From: Candidatus Nanoarchaeia archaeon
Lineage (GTDB): Archaea > Nanobdellota > Nanobdellia > Woesearchaeales > JAGLXL01
Length of the DNA: 43,890 bases
Direction of reading: 5' to 3'
Assembly (NCBI GenBank): GCA_035289325.1
Contig: DATDXM010000042.1
Location: 1-43,890, forward strand
Both the position numbers and the translations under genes were made by a program. This document shows, piece by piece, positions 3,556 to 43,766 of the stretch (position 1 is the stretch's first letter; each line of letters begins with the position of its first letter). Under the pieces are notes generated by a model. It was given only the letters and a program-made list of their open reading frames with translations, was not told the origin of the DNA and did not search any database.

Positions 3556-3700
3556 CTGCGACAACAACAATGGCGGGTGACGGTCGCGCTTCGCACGCCC
3601 TATGTCGCAACAGATTTTACCGTTGTAGGGTAAAATCTGCTGCACTCCATCACCGCCAATGTTGCCGCACGAGAACTGCCCCAGCGCCACGGAGAACAGT
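3556..3700. repeat. GC-rich hairpin element E0 (member of the E/M family, see findings)
   Basis: GC-rich island between rpl37e and the stop of 3708..4373. It has an 11-bp hairpin CAGATTTTACC/GGTAAAATCTG (3611-3639). ATGGCGGGTGACGGTCGC resembles E1 5368-5386, and GCGCCACGGAGAACA resembles E3 35892-35906 and E1 5475-5489. Confidence 0.45.
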
Positions 3701-4592: not shown

Positions 4593-5234
4593 ATGTTTAT
4601 TCCTAAAAAGTGGAAAATGATAACAAGAAAACACACCATATTAGAGCCGTTCGCTCAAGAAGCATGGAAAAAGCATACCTTCGGAGAGGTTAAAAAGTTA
4701 TCTCATAACAAGTCAGATAACTATGTCCATACCACTCTTAAGCGCTTTGTTGCGTCAGGTGTACTTCAAGAACAAAAAATAGGCAACATCATTGTATATT
4801 CTTTGACAAGAGAACTAATCTCACTAACAACTGTTGGCTTTGTCGCTGAGCACAGGGCAAACGCAGCTAAATATCTGCCTCATAGAAATATCCAAAAACT
4901 CATCAACAAAATTAAAACTGCTTTCTATATTTTTATTGTTACCGGCAGCTATGCTAAGATGAAGCAGAAAGAGACTTCTGATCTGGATATAGTTATCATT
5001 TGCGACAACAGGCAAGAGCCTAATGCTGTTCTTTCTCAGATAAAACTAGAAGCTGAGTTGATGATCCCAGAAGCTCATCCATATGTTTTCACTCAAGAGC
5101 AATTTTATCAGATGCTTACAGCTAAAGAAGAAAACTATGGGAAAGAATTCGCGCGGAATAACTTCATAATATCGGGGGGGGAGGCGTATTATTCAATTCT
5201 TATGGAGGCAATCGAACATGGATTCAACGGCTAA
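4593..5234 (+). CDS. nucleotidyltransferase (MNT-type antitoxin-like) with N-terminal wHTH
   Basis: IFIVTGSYAKMKQKETSDLDIVIICD matches the GS-x(n)-DxD polymerase-beta-type NTase motif. The architecture matches 8877..9410. TATA TTTATATAA lies at about 4569-4577. Confidence 0.7.
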   Translation: MFIPKKWKMITRKHTILEPFAQEAWKKHTFGEVKKLSHNKSDNYVHTTLKRFVASGVLQEQKIGNIIVYSLTRELISLTTVGFVAEHRANAAKYLPHRNIQKLINKIKTAFYIFIVTGSYAKMKQKETSDLDIVIICDNRQEPNAVLSQIKLEAELMIPEAHPYVFTQEQFYQMLTAKEENYGKEFARNNFIISGGEAYYSILMEAIEHGFNG

Positions 5235-5334
5235 AATTTACTTGCAAAGAGCGCGTAATGAGTTCAGTGCTGCCCAGTTGTTATTTACAGTTTCAAATGA
5301 CCAAAAGAGAAAGCAGGATCTCCAATTAGTCTAA
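5218..5334 (+). pseudogene. HEPN-partner gene fragment (38 codons) truncated by element E1
   Basis: The ATG at 5218 overlaps the NTase 3' end, as in the intact pair 8877/9407. Translation is MDSTAKIYLQRARNEFSAAQLLFTVSNDQKRKQDLQLV*. The last codons and the stop lie inside the conserved left arm of E1 (AATTAGTCTAA). Confidence 0.5.
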
Positions 5335-5527
5335 TATCCATTCAGTCGTAAAAATAATGTCCTCCTCGATGGCGGCGGTCGGTCACATTGAGATGTGCCC
5401 TCCGCTCGGCGCTCAGAAGCTCGGCTTCTGGCGCCTCCAGAATTTGAGGATTTTCGAGGCATTCGCCTCGCTCCGCGCCATGGAGGACATTAATTTTACT
5501 CCAATATACAACCTACTTATTACGTAC
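5324..5527. repeat. GC-rich hairpin element E1
   Basis: AT-rich arms are homologous to those of E3. The closing stem is ATGTCCTCC(5358-5366)/GGAGGACAT(5482-5490). Internal hairpins include CACAT-TGAG-ATGTG, GCGCtCAGAAGC-TCG-GCTTCTGGCGC and CGAGG-CATTCG-CCTCG. Confidence 0.55.
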
Positions 5528-5573: not shown

Positions 5574-5719
5574 GCGGGGATGCCGGAGCGGTCAAACGGG
5601 TCAGGCTTAGGTCAGCATGATGTGTGCTACTCATCGCGAGATGAGCTGGTTACCGGCGGTCGTGCTGATAGAAACCTGATGGCTTAGTGCCTTCGCAGGT
5701 TCGAATCCTGCTTCCCGCA
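5574..5719 (+). tRNA. tRNA-Leu(UAG) with 62-nt intron (5612..5673) at position 37/38
   Basis: Manual fold: acceptor GCGGGGA/TTCCCGC; anticodon stem TCAGG/CCTGA; loop CTTAGG|intron|A; long variable arm TGGCTTAGTGCCTTC; T arm GCAGG-TTCGAAT-CCTGC; discriminator A. The intron ends pair (TCAGCAtG/CGTGCTGA), consistent with a bulge-helix-bulge substrate. Confidence 0.85.
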
Positions 5720-5794
5720 TTTTTTTGAGACTGAGCGAAGCGAATGTCTCAATATTCTTTGCTCACTTTCTTTGCAAGAAAGTGCGTCTGCTTC

Positions 5795-5814
5795 AATCCT
5801 GCTTCCCGCATTTT
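5795..5814 (+). repeat. direct duplicate of the tRNA-Leu 3' end (att-like)
   Basis: AATCCTGCTTCCCGCATTTT at 5704-5723 is repeated at 5795-5814. The roughly 70 nt between contain two hairpins (GAGAC..GTCTC; CACTTTCTT-TGC-AAGAAAGTG). Confidence 0.7.
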
Positions 5815-6119
5815 CTTTTTGTGTTTTGATGAGATGAATGTTCATTGAATGTCCGCATTAAGCTTGTAAGGTTTCATCTTTTTGGTTTCTATTTTTTAGT
5901 GATGACTTTGTTAAAACTATGAAATCGATTGTTATGGGCTTTCATTGAAATATTTCGATTTGGTGAAAAAGAAGCATTACGAAAACTTTATAAATCAAAC
6001 AAAAATAGCTTTTTTTAGATATTGGAATATGTTCCTAAGGTGAGTTTGAAACGAAACCTTAAAAAAGAGGCGCATATTTCTTTGATAGTAAGTCATAAAC
6101 ACGTGGAGGTGTTTAGATA

Positions 6120-9817: not shown

Positions 9818-11235
9818 AAAATATTGTCATTAAAGAACACTCCATCAAAGAGTTCTTACTTTTCGTGCTGCTCTTCTGCATACTACTCGCGCTGGGCATC
9901 TATTCACAATGGCCAACGACAATTACACCAGACGCTGCGATGCACGCGGAAATTGTTGAACTGATTCGAGCGCAGGGAGTTGTAACAACTTGGCAGCCCT
10001 ATGCTGTGAATCAATACACGTATCCGCCGCTGTTTCATTACATTGCGTTTTTATTGCCACTTGAGCCGATTGATGCTGTACGCGCACTGGGCCTTGTGCT
10101 GTGGCTGCTGCTGCCTGTTGCGATGTATCTGTTGCTGAGCACGTTTGACCGACGGGCTGCGGTGATTGGAGCGATCCTGATAGGGCTTGTGCCGTCATTT
10201 TCTAATGTATTTATCTACAGCGAATTTCCACAGTTGATGAGCATGGTGCTGCTCCTCTTGGAATGGTATTTTCTGCGCAAAGAGAAGCATGCGGCGGCGG
10301 CTGTGGCTGTGGGCGTTATTGGATTGACCCATGTATTCTTTGTGCTTGTTGCAGCTGCACTCTTTTTGGCTCATGTGTGGCTTGGTGGGAAAGTGAGAGC
10401 ATTGCGATATCTTGGGCTTTCGGCTGTTGTTATGATTCCATGGCTGTATGCATACGGACAAATTGTAATGAACGTGCTTGCTGGAACATGGGAAAATACG
10501 CGCTATAATTTGACGCAGCCTGTATTTGGATTTTGGAGCAGTAACGCACTCTATGACTGGTTTGTGAGTGCACATGGATTAACACTTGTGCTGATGGTCC
10601 TTGCCAGTTATGGCTTGCTTACTGTGAAAGATCGTGTGCTGCGCGGATTGTTTGTTGTGTGTGTTGTGCTGAGTGTATATCACATACCATTTACGCAATT
10701 GAAGATGTTCGATTTGCTTGCAGTGCCCGCGGTGATGCTTGCAGCAATCGGGTTGAGTGCAATTTCGCTAAAAAGTTTTTGGAAAAAATCAGTTGTTGTA
10801 ATTGTGGTCATTTTTATGCTTATGTTGCAGGTGAATCATTTTTGGGTTGCAAAAAACTGGTGGTTGAATCCAGAGATTGCGCCGACAGAGGAGTTTACGG
10901 ATGCTGCGCGGTGGCTGCGGAGTTATGACGATACATTTACTCGTGTGTTTTTTTATCAAGCGTCAGCATGGGGTGGGGTGTTATCGGGCAAATTGCCGTT
11001 AGATCCTGATATCACGCATTTAGAAGCTTTCTCGGATGATTATAAAGAACAGGTTGAAGGGCAGCGGAAGATAAAAGAGGCGCTGGTGGATGGTGAGGGG
11101 ATTGATGCTGATATTGTTGAACGATATGATATAAAGTATTTTGTGCTCCCTGTGGAGTTTGCTGGAGAATTGAAAAGTGATTTGCTCTATAGCAACGACG
11201 TGTGGGGGGTGTATAGAATTTATAAGAAAGAGTGA
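9814..11235 (+). CDS. polytopic membrane protein, GT-C-type glycosyltransferase-like (ArnT/PMT-like)
   Basis: 473 aa with more than 10 predicted TM helices, an acidic first loop (TPDAAMHAEIVE) and a soluble C-terminal domain. The family assignment is tentative. Confidence 0.45.
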   Translation: MKNIVIKEHSIKEFLLFVLLFCILLALGIYSQWPTTITPDAAMHAEIVELIRAQGVVTTWQPYAVNQYTYPPLFHYIAFLLPLEPIDAVRALGLVLWLLLPVAMYLLLSTFDRRAAVIGAILIGLVPSFSNVFIYSEFPQLMSMVLLLLEWYFLRKEKHAAAAVAVGVIGLTHVFFVLVAAALFLAHVWLGGKVRALRYLGLSAVVMIPWLYAYGQIVMNVLAGTWENTRYNLTQPVFGFWSSNALYDWFVSAHGLTLVLMVLASYGLLTVKDRVLRGLFVVCVVLSVYHIPFTQLKMFDLLAVPAVMLAAIGLSAISLKSFWKKSVVVIVVIFMLMLQVNHFWVAKNWWLNPEIAPTEEFTDAARWLRSYDDTFTRVFFYQASAWGGVLSGKLPLDPDITHLEAFSDDYKEQVEGQRKIKEALVDGEGIDADIVERYDIKYFVLPVEFAGELKSDLLYSNDVWGVYRIYKKE

Positions 11236-11248
11236 TATTCGTTCAGTC

Positions 11249-11787
11249 ATGACTGAGAAAATAGGTATTTCTGCTATTGATGTGAAGGTAATAGGGGAAG
11301 CTTATAGAGGTTTGCTCTCAATGTTTAGGTCTTATGAACACTTGTTGATTTTCTCGTTGAAGATGCTTTAGACAACCAAAATAAAAAGATTTCAACAACC
11401 TACTTATGGTTTTACAAACCGACAAATGATTTAGTTGGTTATGTGACTGTATTGGCTGATGCAATTAATCTGCAGGTAGAATTAAAAGAATATTTCCGCC
11501 AGACGGGGATTCTCTATAAGTCTTTACCTGCTATCAAGATTGGACGATTGTGTGTCGCTGACAATTATCTTAGAAAGGGAATAGGCACATTAATGATAGA
11601 ATTTGTGATGATTCTTGCTGAGAAAATAGGGAAAGATATTGGTTTGCGGTTTATTACAACAGATGCAAAGAGAAATATGGATTCAGGGAGAGATTCTCTT
11701 CATTTTTACAAAAAGTTTGGTTTTGAGGTTTTAAAGCAGAGAGACAAAGGAACGCTACCCATGTATAAGGACCTAATTAAGAAATGA
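11249..11787 (+). pseudogene. GNAT acetyltransferase (toxin-like) with apparent frameshift near 11335
   Basis: The C-terminal part (track ORF 11443..11787) has the GNAT motif-A-like RLCVADNYLRKGIGTLMIEF. The same frame stays open upstream to 11338 (TLVDFLVEDALDNQNKKISTTYLWFYKPTNDLVGYV) without a start. The ATG at 11249 is in another frame (MTEKIGISAIDVKVIGEAYRGLLSMFRSYEH). Confidence 0.5.
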
Positions 11788-11937
11788 TTCGAAGTGTTTT
11801 CTATTCTTATTAATATCAGCGTAGAGCAGTCTGTCTATTGCAGATAGTGGAGATGCCTCTCTTTTAAGCATTTTCTGAACAAAAAGTTCTGCTTCTTCTC
11901 CACGCAATGTTGGGGTTGCTCTGATTGGTTTTGCCAT
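11773..11937 (-). CDS. 54-aa protein, convergent with and overlapping the GNAT 3' end
   Basis: Manual translation gives MAKPIRATPTLRGEEAELFVQKMLKREASPLSAIDRLLYADINKNRKHFESFLN. A TATA (TTTTATATATTTA on the minus strand) lies about 30 nt upstream. Confidence 0.45.
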   Translation of the reverse strand: MAKPIRATPTLRGEEAELFVQKMLKREASPLSAIDRLLYADINKNRKHFESFLN

Positions 11938-11984
11938 TGTAAGCTTAATCTGACCCTAAATATATAAAACTTTGGTCAGGGGAA

Positions 11985-12062
11985 CGGAGCTGCTCTATAG
12001 CAATGGTGTGTGGGGGGGGTATGGTTAAACAATCTTCCCAAAGAACAGATTATATTTGCTGA
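11985..12062. repeat. relict copy of the junction between the 3' ends of 9814..11235 and 12996..14207
   Basis: 11985-12027 (..ELLYSNGVWGGYG*) resembles 11177-11220 (..DLLYSNDVWGVYR..). On the minus strand, 12024-12062 (LSKYNLFFGKIV*) resembles 12996-13034 (RSKHNVFFGKIV*). Confidence 0.6.
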
Positions 12063-12282
12063 GTCAGTTCAATTCCAATGGGCAGTGTTATTTTTATATC
12101 CTCAAGCTTACGTGTTCGTGCCTTGAACCCCATAATAGCAAAGCCTTTGACTTCCCCTGTTCGTCTGTCCGTTCAAAAACACCTTGACCAAGATTTTTAA
12201 ACGAACCTTCGGTGAATTTACCTATATGAAACTCTAAAAAATCTCCCTCTTCATCATAGTATACAGTCAGATTTCCTTTCAT
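12050..12282 (-). pseudogene. DUF2283-family protein with frameshift at a G-run (about 12146)
   Basis: The N-terminus MKGNLTVYYDEEGDFLEFHIG is the DUF2283 signature. After ..ERTDEQG the shifted frame reads EVKGFAIMGFKARTRKLEDIKITLPIGIELTQQI*, the expected family C-terminus. The in-frame tail (track ORF end 12094) does not fit the family. Confidence 0.6.
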
Positions 12283-12354
12283 TGTATTTTATCTGTATAG
12301 AAGCTTGTAATTATAAATCCATTGTCATCGTAGTCAGCGAAAATAAGAGAAAAC

Positions 12355-12362
12355 TATTTATA
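12355..12362 (+). promoter_or_regulatory. TATA box for 12385..12519
   Basis: TATTTATA lies 22 nt upstream of the ATG. Confidence 0.45.
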
Positions 12363-12384
12363 CATATTCAGCACAGATAGATTC

Positions 12385-12519
12385 ATGGAAACAATTACTA
12401 TTTCAAAAGAAGAATATGTTCATCTGAAGCGGATGGAATCTATAGTACAGGATGAATTGCTCGTGAGCGTTAAGCGAGGGCTAGAAGACGCAGCTCAAGG
12501 GCGGTTACGAGAGCGTTAA
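12385..12519 (+). CDS. 44-aa antitoxin-like protein, paralog of 331..471
   Basis: Manual translation gives METITISKEEYVHLKRMESIVQDELLVSVKRGLEDAAQGRLRER. It is convergent with the RelE-like ORF and overlaps it by 15 nt. Confidence 0.5.
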   Translation: METITISKEEYVHLKRMESIVQDELLVSVKRGLEDAAQGRLRER

Positions 12520-12780
12520 CTTTTTTCTGATGAGGTCGTTGTAATAATCTAATTCTCGTTTGATTTTTTTGATAGTGTCCTGCTGTGTTTTCTTGTCACT
12601 GATAGTTATGAGCAGGATTGCGTCGAGGTCTTCATACACTAAAAAGTAAATACGATAGAGGTCGATTTTCTTCTCTCTGAAAAACGGATAGCCTAAAGGT
12701 TTACCAGCATTTATGTTATGCTTTAATTGCTCAATAATTTTTGTAATTCGATTTTGATATGTCAGAATACCACCAGTATT
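12505..12780 (-). pseudogene. RelE/ParE-like gene lacking its 5' end (abuts element E2)
   Basis: Manual translation gives ..YQNRITKIIEQLKHNINAGKPLGYPFFREKKIDLYRIYFLVYEDLDAILLITISDKKTQQDTIKKIKRELDYYNDLIRKKLTLS*. It aligns with 74..334. There is no start codon, and the frame runs into E2. Confidence 0.5.
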
Positions 12781-12955
12781 TTACTGGTGATATCGGGTGG
12801 TATTCTGAGCATGCTCAAGAACCATCGGCGTCCATGCCATCGGTGTATAGCGACCGAAGGGAGCGGTCACCGATGGTTCTTGACAATCTTTAGGGAGAAG
12901 CTGCATGCGTCAAATTCTTGCGTTGATAGAACGCGAACCATATTGTGGTGGAGAG
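12759..12955. repeat. GC-rich hairpin element E2
   Basis: It opens with ATGTCAGAATACCACC..GGTGGTATTCTGAGCA, the same layout as the M1/M2 opening ATGTCAGAAAC..GTTTCTGAGCA. It also has an 11-bp stem AGAACCATCGG/CCGATGGTTCT and further hairpins. The right boundary is uncertain. Confidence 0.45.
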
Positions 12956-12995
12956 AATAGTAATTTATAATTTGATTGTTACAATCAATGCGTAA

Positions 12996-14207
12996 CTACA
13001 CAATCTTCCCAAAAAACACATTATGCTTGCTTCTTAGTATCTTGACTTTTATTTCGTCGCCGACTTGCGCATCTGAATTGAACACGGTAATTGATCGATC
13101 TTTTGCAACTGCCAGCCGTGTTTTGGGATATCTGCCTGCTGCAACAACCTTTGCGTAGACACTCTGACCTTTCTTGAATGGTTTGGGTAATTGTTTTGTT
13201 TGCTCAACATGGAAATCTTTTTTGAAATCGAGGATGAGGCGCATGCCGGTCTTTTTTTCCAAATCACGCAACTTTGACATAAACGGTTCCCAGGGCATCA
13301 TCTTTGTAGGATTTCTGCCTGTCGTATAATTAAGAAAATTTTGGATGCCGACCATCGGGTAATCCTTTTGTGGCAATGTTTTAGCAAACTCTACGACTTT
13401 GAGCAGCTCGTCATCGTTATAACCGGGAACGAAGAGAGGGGCGATTAGAATGTCCATCTTGTCAGCGGCGTACCGTGCCATTTCCATCACATGACTCGTA
13501 TTGTATATTGCACCTGCCATCTTTGAAGCGATTTCTTTGTCAACTGCGTTGAGCGAGATGTTCAGGCGAAGCTTTGGTATCTTCGACAGCTTGTCAATCA
13601 ACGGCTTGTTGAGCAATGTGCCGTTTGTGTCTGTGGTGATGCGATAGACATACGGAAGCGTGGAAAGTTCCTGCGCAAGCTCTGCAAATTCTGCATAGAC
13701 CAAAGGCTCGCCCTGCACGCCGATGTGCGCTTCGACGGGAATATTAACGAATGCTGCGACGCGCTTGAATTCTTCAATAAGGTAATCACGCTCGACGAGG
13801 TAGTCGGTTTGGTTTGAGGAGAGGCCTTCGTTCACAGAACAATAGACGCAATCAAGGTTGCATGATGTCTGCGGCTTGATCTCGATAATTGATGTGCCGC
13901 GATGGATGATGCCAAACGAGAGGTTGCCTATGAGGGGTATGCCACTGTTCTTGTGGACATAGACTGCTGGATTGTGGGTGACGATTGTCTTTAATTGCGG
14001 AAGCTTTTGTGTTAGGAGATTAAGAAATTTTTGTTCTGCACGCTGATGCGAGCAGTCAAATGTCAGTGCGTTGCGCTCGACTATACATGGTGCAATCGAT
14101 TCCAACTCTGCTTTCTGAATATGCGTGTAAAAACGCTTTGATAGGTTAACTCGTACCGTATCCTCTTCTTCCCAGAAGTCAAGCATCTGGTAGGTGAGCG
14201 TGGACAT
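12996..14207 (-). CDS. radical SAM protein
   Basis: CNLDCVYCSV is the CxxxCxxC cluster motif. There is a 403-aa TIM-barrel-like core plus a C-terminal small beta domain. Confidence 0.8.
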   Translation of the reverse strand: MSTLTYQMLDFWEEEDTVRVNLSKRFYTHIQKAELESIAPCIVERNALTFDCSHQRAEQKFLNLLTQKLPQLKTIVTHNPAVYVHKNSGIPLIGNLSFGIIHRGTSIIEIKPQTSCNLDCVYCSVNEGLSSNQTDYLVERDYLIEEFKRVAAFVNIPVEAHIGVQGEPLVYAEFAELAQELSTLPYVYRITTDTNGTLLNKPLIDKLSKIPKLRLNISLNAVDKEIASKMAGAIYNTSHVMEMARYAADKMDILIAPLFVPGYNDDELLKVVEFAKTLPQKDYPMVGIQNFLNYTTGRNPTKMMPWEPFMSKLRDLEKKTGMRLILDFKKDFHVEQTKQLPKPFKKGQSVYAKVVAAGRYPKTRLAVAKDRSITVFNSDAQVGDEIKVKILRSKHNVFFGKIV

Positions 14208-14960: not shown

Positions 14961-16340
14961 GTGGCTTGCATGGTGGATGGTCATTTTATCGGTTTAGTTC
15001 GCGATGAATTTGGACGAGTACAGAAAGTACTGTCAGATTCTGTTTATTACAGAAGCGAGCGAGGCGGGAATTATGGAGGACGCGTACGAAATCCCGGTCA
15101 ATGGTGGAGGTCAGAGAGAGTTGCACGAGTTGCTCCATTATCTGTTTCTTTGGAACAGGTTATTGATCAAAAAGTTACAGATGATTATAGGCGATTGCCT
15201 GATCACCTTAGAGAGACATTGCAGCAAGGGCTTTTGCGAACATCTGTAGAAAGAAGCACTGATTATGCTGTACTAATGAGTGTTGTTTGTGCTGATGGAA
15301 AAGTGGATGGGGGACGAACCGGCGCACTGCTCTACAGAGGAGAGCCCGTTATCGTTAACATTGATGGAAAGGAATTTGTTGTTGAAATAAAAGGGGTTGG
15401 AAGTGCTGATGGTAATAATACGCGAACTGAACCAATAGTGAGGCGCGGCTATTTTGGTATATTCAAGGAGAAATTTGGAAGCCTTGACAAAGAAGAAGGT
15501 ATGAGAGAATTAGAATGCCTTGAAGTGCAGCGAGGCTCATCTTCATTTGCTCGTGGTGATACAGTGCGTGCTGTCAGTTTGCACATATATGATAATATAG
15601 GTGATAATTATAAGCAGGCGTATCACTTGAGGCTTGCGCCAAGCACTGTTCGTGTGTCGTTCACTGGCAACCCTGCATTTCCTGAGCATGATGCACAATG
15701 TTTAGCTGAGGACATTGGACAGCAGTACGCGGAACTTGCACAGTTGGGATTTCTTCATGGTTCATTGCATGCGGAGAATGTGCTTTTTACAGGCACGCGT
15801 TATGTGATGACAGATTTTGGTGATTGCAGCAGATTAGAAGAACTCCCTGACCTGTATGATTTTTTAAGTAATACATTGAGCAGAGATAGATTCAGAGAAA
15901 TGCCTGGATTCACAAATAGACATATTGATATATTGTATGCAACGATTGCGCGGGGTTTAGGAATCTCTTATGCTTCTGAGAGAGATCTTTGGTTTATTGA
16001 TGATATCTGGTCAGGATTTTTTGCGTCGAAAGTATATGAGCTGAGAAAAGGAACGCATGTACAGGAGCATGTTGACGAAAAGAAAGCAAGTGTTCTTGAT
16101 GAGATCGAGCATGGAGACCGTGCGTGGATCGATAATAAATTACGAGTATATCCTCTTGCTTTTTTATCAAGAGAAATTCGTGTGCTCGAGCATGTTGATG
16201 CGCCAGAAGCCATTGAAAGCCTACGAATTGCACGCGAAAGGGCAGCATATCTCATGAATGCTGATGTTATAAAAGAGTTCAAAGATAATCTCGGTGCGTG
16301 GGAACAGTTGTTTTTTCTCCCGTATATGCGTTCGCGATAG
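14961..16340 (+). CDS. SelO/YdiU-like pseudokinase-fold protein (putative nucleotidyltransferase)
   Basis: FVVEIKGVGSADGNNT resembles SelO ..LKGaG.TP. LRLAPSTVRVSF resembles SelO RvAPSfiRfGsF. GFLHGSLHAENVLFTGTRYVMTDFGD resembles SelO GFvHGVmNTDNm....tIDYG. The start is GTG per the track. Assignment is from memory of SelO motifs. Confidence 0.45.
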   Translation: MACMVDGHFIGLVRDEFGRVQKVLSDSVYYRSERGGNYGGRVRNPGQWWRSERVARVAPLSVSLEQVIDQKVTDDYRRLPDHLRETLQQGLLRTSVERSTDYAVLMSVVCADGKVDGGRTGALLYRGEPVIVNIDGKEFVVEIKGVGSADGNNTRTEPIVRRGYFGIFKEKFGSLDKEEGMRELECLEVQRGSSSFARGDTVRAVSLHIYDNIGDNYKQAYHLRLAPSTVRVSFTGNPAFPEHDAQCLAEDIGQQYAELAQLGFLHGSLHAENVLFTGTRYVMTDFGDCSRLEELPDLYDFLSNTLSRDRFREMPGFTNRHIDILYATIARGLGISYASERDLWFIDDIWSGFFASKVYELRKGTHVQEHVDEKKASVLDEIEHGDRAWIDNKLRVYPLAFLSREIRVLEHVDAPEAIESLRIARERAAYLMNADVIKEFKDNLGAWEQLFFLPYMRSR

Positions 16341-16349
16341 CACACCCAC

Positions 16350-16738
16350 GCGATATTGAAAATGTCAGAAACAAGGTTTCTGAGCACGATCAGAAATCTG
16401 TGGATTTCTGACGGTTCTCGCTTAGTAATAAGCTAGTCAGCATTGCTATGCTTGACACGTACCTCGGTGCTGTCGTTCGCTCGGTCAATTTTTTTATGTG
16501 CTTTATTCACAAACACCATCAGATTAAGCTGAAGAAAATCGATTCCAACGTGCTCAGAAACTTCGTTTCTGGCACCTCGCTCACTTTGTTCGGAGGAGTC
16601 AGAACATTACCAACGCTTCGCTCAGTAAAAAGCTAGTCAGCACTGTGGTGCTCGACACGTACCTTGACAGCACACGCAAAGTTACCTTTGCTAGTCGCGT
16701 TCGGCAACTGCCTCGCGACCAACACTTTTCAATATCGC
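16350..16738. mobile_element. MITE-like element M1 (389 bp)
   Basis: The TIR is GCGATATTGAAAA(T)GT ... AC(A)CTTTTCAATATCGC. The first 125 nt differ from M2 at 3 positions, and the last 68 nt are identical to M2. The segment 16429-16483 is duplicated internally at about 16618-16672. No flanking duplication was seen. Confidence 0.6.
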
Positions 16739-16928
16739 CTCGAGGTTAGAGAATTTTTATCCAGATTCAGGGATAACGAGGGGATAAGCAATGACGAGCT
16801 TCAGGAATCTTACGAAATTAATAAGAAAGACTGTGGACTGGTGCGAGCTATTGCCCGTAGCATTATCAACCGTAATGCTCGTTCAGTTCGATAGGTTTGT
16901 CAAGAACGAGTATTACATCAGTCATAAG

Positions 16929-35604: not shown

Positions 35605-35945
35605 GTACGTAATTAGTCTATTATATTTATCTTTGTAAAAATGTTGTTCTTCTCTTCTGGAGGGCAGAGCCCTCTAGAAGATACAAGAGGACTAAAAATG
35701 AAATTTTTGTCCTCTATGTATCCATGGCAGCGACTGTCAAAATTTGCGAATTTTGCCTGTTGTGAGCATAGCTCACTTCCAAATCAGTCTTTTCTACGGA
35801 AAAGATGATTCTATTTCGCACGTGCTTAGAAGCGTGGCTTCTGGCACATCAAGAAGCTGAGGCTTCTTAATGATTGTTATCGTGCTTCATCGCGCCACGA
35901 AGAACAACATTTTTACTACTATTTTACGAACGACTAATTACGTAC
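35605..35945. repeat. GC-rich hairpin element E3 (largest E-type copy)
   Basis: The outer inverted repeats are GTACGTAATTAGTC (35605-35618) and GACTAATTACGTAC (35932-35945). The inner closing stem is ATGTTGTTCTTC/GAAGAACAACAT. The interior has at least 7 hairpins, for example TCTTCTGGAGGG-CAGAG-CCCTCTAGAAGA and GTGAGC-ATA-GCTCAC. Confidence 0.6.
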
Positions 35946-35954
35946 ATATAAGCG

Positions 35955-36304
35955 GCGATATTGAAAATGTCAGAAACAAGGTTTCTGAGCACGATCAGAA
36001 ATCTGTGGATTTCTGACGGTTCTCGCTTAGTAAGAAGCTAGTCAGCATTGCTATGCTCGACACGTACCTCGGTGGTGTCAACTCGCTCGGCAAAAATCGG
36101 GATGTCAGATTAACACATTTTATGCTTTCATCCTCTTATTGATTTTTGTTCCACGAAAAAGATGCAGAGCAATAGGAAAGTAGCTACTCGTACTTCGTAC
36201 CGAGACATCGGCGCCTCGCTCGTAAATCAAAGACACCACACGCAAAGTTACCTTTGCTAGTCGCGTTCGGCAACTGCCTCGCGACCAACACTTTTCAATA
36301 TCGC
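35955..36304. mobile_element. MITE-like element M2 (350 bp) with flanking 9-10 bp direct duplication
   Basis: It has the same termini as M1. (C)ATATAAGCG occurs at 35945-35954 and again at 36305-36314, immediately outside the inverted repeats. Confidence 0.65.
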
Positions 36305-36319
36305 CATATAAGCGACATG

Positions 36320-37862: not shown

Positions 37863-38012
37863 GTTGGATGATGTGGTCTTGTATTTAAAACATTTGGTAA
37901 TTTAGTTGGCGAAATAGCACCAGTGAATTACCGATGTGTTCAAAAACCACATTGAGGTGTGGTTTTTGACATTTTCGTGCGCGAAATTTTAAAGAAATGT
38001 TGAAAAGATAAA

Positions 38013-43538: not shown

Positions 43539-43693
43539 TGGTTTGGTGAATGAAGATACTGTTTTAAAGGTTTCCTCATCGTTTGAATAAATATATAAAT
43601 CAACAAGAAAAGATGAAGTGAATGGGCCCTGCGTGCCCGTTTGCTCAAGCAATGGAGCGATATGTTGTACGCAGGCAACCCTTCGGAGCAAAC

Positions 43694-43766
43694 GGGCCCG
43701 TGGTCTAGCGGTCATGACGTTTCCCTTACACGGAGAAGGTCACCAGTTCGAACCTGGTCGGGCCCA
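43694..43766 (+). tRNA. tRNA-Val(UAC)
   Basis: Manual fold: acceptor GGGCCCG/CGGGCCC; anticodon stem TTTCC/GGAGA; loop CTTACAC; T arm ACCAG-TTCGAAC-CTGGT; discriminator A. No intron. Confidence 0.9.

Follow-up and report, generated by a model that had tools for sequence, protein, structure and literature searches.

What are the tightly folding, non-coding stretches that lie between the genes of a Candidatus Nanoarchaeia contig, and how did they come to be there? The contig (DATDXM010000042.1, 43,890 bp, mean GC 0.416; below, the window always means this stretch at its full length) belongs to a metagenome-assembled genome (MAG) from the DPANN archaea, whose genomes are among the smallest of any cells and which are commonly regarded as poor in transposable elements. 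An earlier note, made from the sequence alone, had singled out six segments, here called E0 to E3, M1 and M2, as one family of GC-rich, hairpin-modular elements that could be mobile elements, structured RNA genes or both. We find at least two families of MITEs (miniature inverted-repeat transposable elements), E and M, together with hairpin clusters that have the termini of neither, all linked through a shared pool of hairpin modules; about 4% of the 44-kb stretch is non-coding repeat DNA, with two MITE families. We consider it likely that the DPANN genome contains nested mobile DNA of the non-autonomous kind, in which MITEs carry a cargo of hairpin doublets similar to the repetitive extragenic palindromes (REP) of bacteria and to REP doublets forming hairpins (REPIN).

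Six structured segments, at least two families

All six segments lie between open reading frames (ORFs), at the positions collected in Table 1, and all fold far better than dinucleotide shuffles. When folding was computed for sliding windows of 100 nt (contig mean -0.19 kcal/nt, standard deviation 0.06), E1, E2 and E3, at -0.46, -0.44 and -0.42 kcal/nt respectively, were among the most structured parts of the contig. The description of the segments as GC-rich holds in part: their GC is no more than modestly raised, and that of E3 is not raised relative to the window. The hairpins of which they were said to consist are indeed concentrated inside the elements; counted across the window, perfect hairpins exceed chance only mildly, with 31 against about 21 in shuffles. 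ORFs that cross the segments are short only and without protein-like character, as had been remarked, and none of the six elements matches an Rfam family at gathering score or at E<=5; at gathering score the window yields two tRNAs only.

The idea of a single family did not survive comparison. BLAST relates M1 and M2 only, and a covariance model of six sequences is for that reason not meaningful; E1 and E3 share their termini only, and E0 and E2 are without them. Several of the resemblances reported earlier are nevertheless present: inner inverted repeats that start with GTAAAAAT and an outer arm ACTWATTACGTAC are found in both E1 and E3, the motif GCGCCAYGRAGRACA is common to E0, E1 and E3 and occurs exactly three times in the window (at up to 2 mismatches there are 4 matches, against 0.39 expected), and ATGTCAGAA-stem-TTCTGAGCA is common to E2 and the M elements. 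The ATGGCGG attributed to E3, by contrast, reads ATGGCAG.

Table 1. Hairpin-bearing features of the window, with folding scores (z against dinucleotide shuffles) and GC fraction.
Feature	Position	Length	Fold z	GC	Description
E3	35605-35945	341 bp	-12.3	0.39	outer 14-bp perfect terminal inverted repeat GTACGTAATTAGTC at 35605-35618 and 35932-35945
E3 inner inverted repeat	35635-35652 and 35899-35916	18 bp			perfect; about eight hairpins between
E3 doublet	35822-35871	50 nt			GTGCTTAGAAGCGTGGCTTCTGGCAC then ATCAAGAAGCTGAGGCTTCTTAAT; missing in one strain
E1	5324-5527		-6.8	0.49 (core 0.55)	right terminus ACTTATTACGTAC intact at 5514-5527; left terminus truncated (CCAATTAGTC); 46 nt upstream of tRNA-Leu gene
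E1 doublet	5408-5457	50 nt			GGCGCTCAGAAGCTCGGCTTCTGGCGCC then TCCAGAATTTGAGGATTTTCGA; missing from homologous core in related species
M2	35954-36305	352 bp	-6.9	0.46	terminal inverted repeat GGCGATATTGAAAATGT / ACACTTTTCAATATCGCC; middle unique, arms common with M1
M2 target-site duplication, left copy	35946-35953				ATATAAGC
M2 target-site duplication, right copy	36306-36313				ATATAAGC
M1	16349-16739	391 bp	-6.5	0.46	first base C, not G; internal second copy of module TCGCTYAGTAA.AAGCTAGTCAGC...
E2	12759-12955		-7.1	0.49	hairpin cluster without E or M termini; 12759-12885 is a doublet, ATGTCAGAA..TTCTGAGCAT followed by GCTCAAGAACCATC..GATGGTTCTTGACA
E0	3556-3700 (minus strand)		-4.6	0.57	long imperfect hairpin and motif GCGCCACGGAGAACA; no E or M termini
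tRNA-Leu insert	5727-5817	68 nt (insert)			two-hairpin insert, then 23-nt duplicate of tRNA-Leu 3' end (5795-5817)
Isolated hairpin	37940-37969				perfect 12-bp stem, TCAAAAACCACA-TTGAGG-TGTGGTTTTTGA, CAAAA type; between eIF-6 and deoxyhypusine synthase genes

Terminal repeats and target-site duplications

The M elements end in a terminal inverted repeat, GGCGATATTGAAAA, which reads GGCGATATTGAAAA(T)GT at both ends. By BLAST, M1 matches M2 over a left arm of 125 nt (98% identity) and a right arm of 74 nt (99%), and their middles differ. Scanning metagenomes with the left terminus brought up M3, a further copy, which stands at a different locus, occurs in two assemblies and has the same arms and a third distinct middle; across the three copies the arms are 96-100% identical and the three middles are all different. 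M3 has the termini of M2 and is flanked on both sides by an 8-bp duplication, GTCTATTT. In both M2 and M3 the duplication measures exactly 8 bp and directly adjoins GGCGATATTG...CAATATCGCC. Such a pair of independent 8-bp direct repeats, each next to identical inverted termini, is the mark of DDE-type transposition, whether cut-and-paste or replicative. The 16-nt M terminus is also found in MAGs of two other species (L052 and L086). Two ORFs of 456-459 aa, one beside M1 and the other beside M3, were considered as a gene linked to the family and rejected, being unrelated to one another, and we take their adjacency as coincidental.

E3 and M2 were described as standing back to back, and this is so: the 8 bp of ATATAAGC alone lie between them, the target site of M2 beginning right after the last base of E3. 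The two are separate insertions, both within the 790 bp that separate the divergent promoters of two gene pairs, DUF7342/TumE and HicB/HicA.

For the E family we turned to relatives, taking contigs that encode homologues of the neighbouring deoxyhypusine synthase (HLC74738.1 in the window). Contig L137, from a species in which this protein is 83% identical, carries an E element at L137:11747-12003 with termini GTACGTAATAAGTC...GACTAATACGTAC, an inverted repeat matching at 13/14 positions, and a perfect 8-bp duplication, TTTCTCAC. In reverse complement this copy can be aligned to both E1 and E3 at the left terminus; the three also align across the right arm, GCGCCAYGRAGRACA...TTT.C...ACTWATTACGTAC, about 55 nt at the right end. 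Matching termini together with the 8-bp duplication make E a second MITE family, with a duplication of the same length as in M. Between the arms, the E interior ranges from 96 to 282 nt through insertion and deletion (indel) of whole hairpins. Copies beyond the original six, whose absence the earlier note would have counted against its proposal, are known from M3, from the E element of the related species and from other loci.

The truncated left end of E1 lies beside a possible casualty. A short ORF at 5219-5330 (MDSTAKIYLQRARNEFSAAQLLF...), following a nucleotidyltransferase gene, resembles the N-terminus of a HEPN partner and runs into the truncated end, which suggests that the gene was destroyed by the E1 insertion or a linked deletion.

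Contigs 99.4-99.98% identical to the window are present in several ENA and JGI groundwater assemblies, and copy counts given here for the genome of the window cover about 66 kb sampled. About 10 kb further leftward of the window contain no additional E or M copy, and rightward the contigs stop at the end of the window. These assemblies also address whether the similarity could be an artefact of assembly or chimera formation. Contigs do break at element ends, one (L006) exactly at 35605 and two others in another MAG, as is expected given that true multi-copy repeats cause such breaks; E3, however, is present in six independent metagenome assemblies, and identical structures recur in at least six independent ENA/JGI assemblies, which leaves an artefactual origin with practically no credibility.

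A hairpin module shared between elements and species

What fills the space between the termini? The commonest module is a hairpin of 24-30 nt that combines a CAGAA/TTCTG stem base with a bulged U and a tip that varies, and it mostly occurs in doublets of two hairpins, about 50 nt in all. One hairpin type is present in E1, E3 and M1 and again, reversed, in M1 and M2. The module pattern GCTYAGAARCNNNGYTTCTGRCRY has 5 matches in the window, all within elements, against 0 expected. We scanned one genome per GTDB species (185,579 species genomes) with the same pattern and obtained 75 loci, 58 of them in archaeal MAGs of many species and 17 bacterial, the latter close to the number expected by chance. 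The 58 archaeal MAGs are mostly labelled Woesearchaeota, Nanoarchaeota or Pacearchaeota, with a few labelled Methanosarcinales, Euryarchaeota SM23-78 or simply archaeon, and one MAG has module matches on 8 different contigs. As such archaea are estimated to make up well below 1% of the genome collection, we estimate that the module is enriched several hundred-fold in them, above 500-fold in MAGs of Woesearchaeota and Nanoarchaeota, an enrichment at the level of the phylum.

Covariation, which had been proposed for the six copies, was instead assessed on modules, and pairing at the variable position proved strictly Watson-Crick. An R/Y stem pair that the pattern leaves unconstrained is A-T or G-C in 58/58 archaeal matches, compared with 9/17 of the bacterial chance matches. 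A formal count on 59 modules (55 usable locus matches and 4 from the window) gives AU 34 and GC 25 at this pair, with no other type; a pair that lies outside the search pattern gives UA 41, CG 14, UG 2 and other 2. The bulged U is constant in these modules, and half have a C.A mismatch (G.U on the opposite strand). Adjacent hairpins of other lengths, which the search seed did not cover, are fully paired too.

The doublet takes two forms. In one, ATGTCAGAA-x-TTCTGAGCAT is followed by GCTCAGAA-x-TTCTGACAT, of which E2 is a long-stemmed version; in the other, a CAGAA hairpin is directly followed by a hairpin of CAAAA or CAGAA type. Doublets recur at more than 20 MAG loci, the architecture of the E2 doublet is repeated in other Woesearchaeota MAGs (L092, L098, L118 and L124), and CAAAA-type hairpins follow CAGAA hairpins in many MAGs. 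The modules are flanked by ATGT..AGCA or GYGC-U..GCRC. A motif in L137, GTTGCCGCACGAGA, is related to the E0 motif GCGCCACGGAGAACA. Scans of viral contigs gave 0 matches to the E arm, 0 to the doublet centre and 39 single chance matches to the M terminus, and BLAST of E3 plus M2 against plasmids and phages gave no match.

A contig of the Desulfobacterales bacterium HSG2 has at least 7 copies of a repeat, as close together as about 130 nt, that contains the pattern by coincidence (GCTCAGAAACGAGGCTTCTGGCAT). The stem is mismatched there, and the repeat family is an unrelated one.

Modules as units of gain and loss

Two comparisons show whole doublets present or absent. One strain contig, L002, has an E3 without exactly the 50 nt of the E3 doublet, which are two complete hairpins; the rest of the aligned E3 is identical, and the difference lies between strains that are more than 99% identical. 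The core of E1 is collinear with a shorter stretch of the related species (L137:5355-5475), the sole difference being the exact 50-nt insert that constitutes the E1 doublet. Both indels consist of a CAGAA hairpin and then a second hairpin with a TGAG loop, and the direct repeats that flank them are at most 1 nt in E3, with neither longer than 3 nt.

Larger pieces are exchanged in the same manner. A three-hairpin block of E1 is inverted in another element of L137 (84% identity), L137 has the right-arm module of M at three places, one of them inside its E copy, and in one other MAG nine loci share pieces of 30-195 nt in varying combinations. The recurrence of these pieces across E, M, L137 and the nine-locus MAG indicates that the cargo is a mosaic drawn from a common pool.

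A trace of such pieces may be present near M1. In the 3' part of the ORF 14961-16340, a 24-nt stretch (16189-16212) shows 88% complementarity with a portion of the E3 doublet (35835-35858; GCCAGAAGCCA), and a 30-nt direct repeat is found nearby, at 16046 and 16169. The end of this ORF may contain remnants of hairpin modules.

Folded DNA or structured RNA?

Do the hairpins act as DNA or as RNA? The second of the two possibilities raised originally, a family of structured RNA genes, takes its most explicit form if E-type elements encode a structured non-coding RNA of a new kind, with the AT-rich arms serving as promoter and terminator and the hairpins as RNA domains. The very strong folding scores of E3 and E1 would be in keeping with this, as would the closing stems of E, which are conserved and show compensatory changes between the E1, E3 and L137 copies (UCCUCC/GGAGGA, UUCUUC/GAAGAA and UUCUCC/GGAGAA), and E0, which lies directly after a minus-strand gene and folds better on that strand, with 9 G-U pairs.

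E0 is, however, an exception to strand symmetry. In E1, E3, M1 and M2 the plus and minus strands fold at the same energy, and G-U pairs are nearly absent (0/61 in E1 and 5/122 in E3, or 0-5%). There is no wobble at the variable stem pair of the 59 modules, and loop triplets are roughly balanced with their reverse complements (TTC 14 / GAA 10, AAA 8 / TTT 7). Equal folding of the strands, scarcity of G-U, lack of wobble, balanced loops and the negative Rfam result together lead to a reading at the level of DNA: the pattern fits DNA palindromes whose two strands must both pair, or whose recognition takes place in the folded, single-stranded state, and not a transcribed RNA with a defined sense. 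Stems as nearly perfect as these are also untypical of functional RNAs, the interior varies almost threefold in length by whole-hairpin indels, one E copy has terminal inverted repeats and an 8-bp duplication, and neither synteny nor orientation is conserved, clustering of ORFs across the 58 archaeal loci having revealed no recurrent neighbouring gene family. An RNA gene family is thus unsupported and in our view improbable, whereas mobility is supported by the inverted termini, the 8-bp duplications and the module-wise interiors. Candidates with more specific signatures, namely attC sites, bulge-helix-bulge introns, hammerhead and hairpin ribozymes and K-turns, were rejected on the sequence, as their defining motifs are absent; so were CRISPR arrays, in that the hairpins abut, differ in sequence and form no regular repeat family.

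Do the modules serve the host?

A DNA-level reading leaves room for selection by the host. Under this alternative the modules would be host cis-elements, such as bidirectional terminators or insulators, stabilisers of mRNA 3' ends or sites bound by an abundant nucleic-acid-binding protein, and the MITE termini would be secondary. Conservation of the stem base and bulged U extends over many species, pairing is strict, and the modules are strongly extragenic (11/90 in ORFs, against an ORF coverage of 82%). Hairpins of CAAAA..TTTTG type yield a T-run on both strands, four elements of the window lie between convergent 3' ends or after a gene, and the isolated hairpin at 37940-37969, with a T5 run on both strands, follows the stop codon of eIF-6 and could be a bidirectional terminator. 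Termination of this kind by T-run hairpins is one possible use by the host.

Other observations fit poorly with a primary host role. E3 and M2 stand between divergent promoters and not after genes, and the 58 loci showed neither a preference for 3' ends nor a significant bias in orientation (tandem gene contexts 10 versus 3, p ~0.09). The presence of modules differs between strains more than 99% identical and between species, and copies are mosaics that stand at different loci from one genome to another. We therefore regard host cis-elements as an unlikely primary explanation, if the least unlikely of the alternatives considered here. The two ideas are not exclusive of one another, as REP elements are both mobile and used by their hosts, and a cis-element reading is compatible with mobility.

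Hairpins at tRNA ends and in a strain-variable block

Some hairpin loci have a different setting. In the window, the 3' end of the tRNA-Leu gene (AATCCTGCTTCCCGCATTTT) is repeated 91 nt downstream, with two hairpins between (5704-5817). A strain contig, L134, departs from the window exactly at 5814, after the second copy of the tRNA end, and at L134:2400-2620 has three tandem copies of this end, each preceded by a hairpin containing CTGAGCGAAGCGAATG. The tRNA-Leu 3' region looks like a hot spot of integration or recombination.

This setting invites the explanation that hairpin clusters mark where site-specific recombination takes place or has left scars, either as the arms of integrase att sites or as folded sites similar to attC that integrated elements left behind. 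The inserts between duplicated tRNA ends, here and in other genomes (L069, L073, L099, and the three tandem copies of L134), together with the departure of L134 exactly at a tRNA-end copy, would be expected under it; a conserved stem base with an extrahelical base recalls attC, and E2 lies in a strain-variable block of 1.78 kb bounded by 32-35-nt duplicates of gene 3' ends. Against this, no integrase was found in the window or its flanks, the attC core sites RYYYAAC/GTTRRRY are not seen in the hairpins on inspection by eye, M and E copies have 8-bp duplications of transposase type, and most hairpin loci are not beside tRNA genes. Recombination sites therefore appear very improbable as a general account of the hairpins, and mobile MITEs with a hairpin cargo remain the reading that we prefer.

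Several further observations concern these loci. The block that contains E2 (11217-12996) is missing from three strain contigs and also holds a GNAT fragment and small toxin-antitoxin-like ORFs; it consists of two parts, of 808 and 971 bp, each closing with a 32-35-nt imperfect copy of the 3' ends of the flanking genes. In other species, hairpin doublets stand between a tRNA end and a 15-23-nt duplicate of that end, at the 5' end of tRNA-Leu in L099 and at a 3' end in L069 and L073. These insertions at tRNA genes carry long target duplications, unlike the 8-bp duplications of E and M. The tRNA-Leu of the window (anticodon TAG, 5574-5719) has an intron of about 75 nt and scores 42 bits with Rfam, and ARAGORN misses it; a homologous intron-bearing tRNA-Leu is present in L099, another Woesearchaeota MAG. 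At 43621-43700 a hairpin, GCCCGTTTGCTC...GAGCAAACGGGC, overlaps the 5' end of a tRNA-Val gene, with a second GGGCCC upstream and a local fold of -0.40 kcal/nt. The genes of the window are otherwise an archaeal set that includes Nop10, eIF-2alpha, GINS, an Sm-like protein, prefoldin, SRP54, eIF-6 and an S-layer-like protein.

A nested model, its candidate enzymes and the points against it

We propose a model with two layers. In the first, E and M are two non-coding MITE families of a few hundred base pairs that insert with an 8-bp duplication; they would be moved by a DDE-type transposase that acts in trans and makes staggered cuts 8 bp apart. E3 and M2 inserted independently into the same gap, M2 landing right beside the end of E3. 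In the second layer, the interiors of the MITEs and the clusters E0 and E2 are mosaics of short hairpin modules, in which doublets are gained or lost without target duplication, much like REP and REPIN sequences or mini-elements derived from IS200/IS605 insertion sequences (IS) with subterminal hairpins and no terminal repeat. The same doublets are shared between E, M, other clusters and many species of Nanoarchaeota.

Which enzymes could be responsible? A related Nanoarchaeia population from the same aquifer samples has an IS6-type DDE gene (L140:1290-2264, 288 aa) that combines DDE_Tnp_IS240 with an InsA-like zinc ribbon. IS6 elements generate 8-bp duplications. The gene is single-copy, with three copies of a palindrome, TTAGACGTCTAA, before it and no recognisable terminal repeats, and its context is the same in all 7 contigs, from which it may be a domesticated gene. 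An apparent 5-kb insertion carrying it was rejected as an effect of comparing short with long contigs, and an apparent 53-nt indel there is a scaffold gap. For the doublets, a tblastn search with an IS200 TnpA query gave no match in the contigs examined. A 2026 preprint reports K07491, of the RAYT/IS200 type (RAYT, REP-associated tyrosine transposase), as the only transposase orthologue of the KEGG classification with strict matches in 256 Nanobdellota proteomes.

A number of observations weigh against mobility as we have described it, and they are best considered together. First, duplications are not found at every copy: E3 and E1 have none, the flanks of M1 (CACACCCA and TCGAGGTT) form none, and there is none at the M-like element in L052 or at a 195-nt repeat in L086 and L104. 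For M1, the missing duplication, the altered first base and the second internal module copy suggest that it may be a recombinant of two M copies. Second, an exact search of JGI metagenomes for the expected empty site of M2, ...ACGTACATATAAGCGACATG..., gave 0 matches, and all strain contigs carry E3, M2 and M1, with no polymorphism between filled and empty sites seen. Third, no transposase was found in the window or adjoining any hairpin locus, and an autonomous element, that is, the longer copy with a transposase between the same termini that the earlier note had envisaged, was found neither in the window nor at the 58 archaeal loci nor in relatives; beside the IS6-like gene there is no E or M terminus, and this gene occurs in one genomic context and could not be placed in the genome of the window. 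Fourth, the roughly 66 kb sampled show only three M and two E copies. Finally, the 50-nt indels could be replication deletions driven by the hairpins and not transposition, and a stem base conserved throughout the lineage could be due to a function in the host and not to selfish spread. The enzymes, the direction of each indel (insertion or excision) and any use by the host are inferences; the termini, duplications, shared copies, module-exact indels, enrichment, covariation and extragenic location are observed.

Relation to known elements

Prokaryotic MITEs, such as SM1-4 of Sulfolobus, those of Haloquadratum and Halobacterium, and Correia/NEMIS, resemble E and M in being small, non-coding and intergenic, with terminal inverted repeats, a target-site duplication of fixed length, conserved ends and long hairpins; such MITEs have several copies per genome. 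The hallmarks of such elements in E and M are a length of 204-391 bp, the terminal inverted repeats and the 8-bp duplications at M2, M3 and the L137 E copy. They differ from known MITEs in that no parent IS with matching termini was found, that the interior is not the remnant of a deleted IS but a changing mosaic of hairpin modules common to two families whose termini differ, and that the host belongs to DPANN. In Archaea, MITEs have been described in Sulfolobus, haloarchaea and a few further lineages; a 2024 review does not name DPANN among the hosts. Our own full-text literature searches found no description of these hairpins.

The modules resemble REP, bacterial interspersed mosaic elements (BIME) and REPIN, which likewise are short, imperfect extragenic palindromes with a conserved stem base, arranged as doublets and mosaic clusters, present throughout a lineage and without target duplication. 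In bacteria these are mobilised by RAYT transposases, which are Y1 enzymes similar to those of IS200 and as a rule come from a single-copy gene with REPs at its sides; REPs number hundreds in a genome. Unlike bacterial REPs, the archaeal modules have no GTAG or CGTC tag, having in its place the flanks described above; no RAYT gene was found in the contigs examined, the host is an archaeon, and the hairpins also ride in MITEs with terminal inverted repeats.

Two further comparisons are instructive. BOX elements of Streptococcus pneumoniae (boxA-boxB(n)-boxC) likewise have conserved end modules around a variable number of hairpin modules, although their sequences and host are unrelated, and they are not known to have an 8-bp duplication or terminal repeat of the E or M kind. 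The IS6 family (IS26, IS240, and the archaeal ISH14 and ISPfu types) likewise has the 8-bp duplication and a short terminal repeat starting GG, with the difference that E and M encode nothing. The M terminus GGCGATATTGAAAA agrees at 10/14 positions with the IS26 terminus (GGCACTGTTGCAAA), an agreement that is a lead and not a test.

A bolder version of the second layer, which we put forward only tentatively, is that the CAGAA/TTCTG doublets are the archaeal counterpart of REPINs: a population of DNA replicators of about 50 nt that persist vertically throughout the lineage, in the very small genomes of Nanoarchaeota and Woesearchaeota. A single-copy domesticated transposase, either of the Y1/K07491 type or IS6-like, would recognise them as folded single-stranded DNA, and they would remodel MITE cargo, intergenic regions and the ends of tRNA genes.

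If the doublets are themselves mobile, the REP/REPIN phenomenon would extend to Archaea, and the doublets would offer a tractable marker for population genetics at the strain level, for breaks in the assembly of DPANN MAGs and also for tracing the enzyme by which folded DNA is recognised in these organisms. If they are instead used by the host, for instance as terminators or insulators, they would amount to a regulatory element, so far without annotation, that an entire lineage of archaea has in common.

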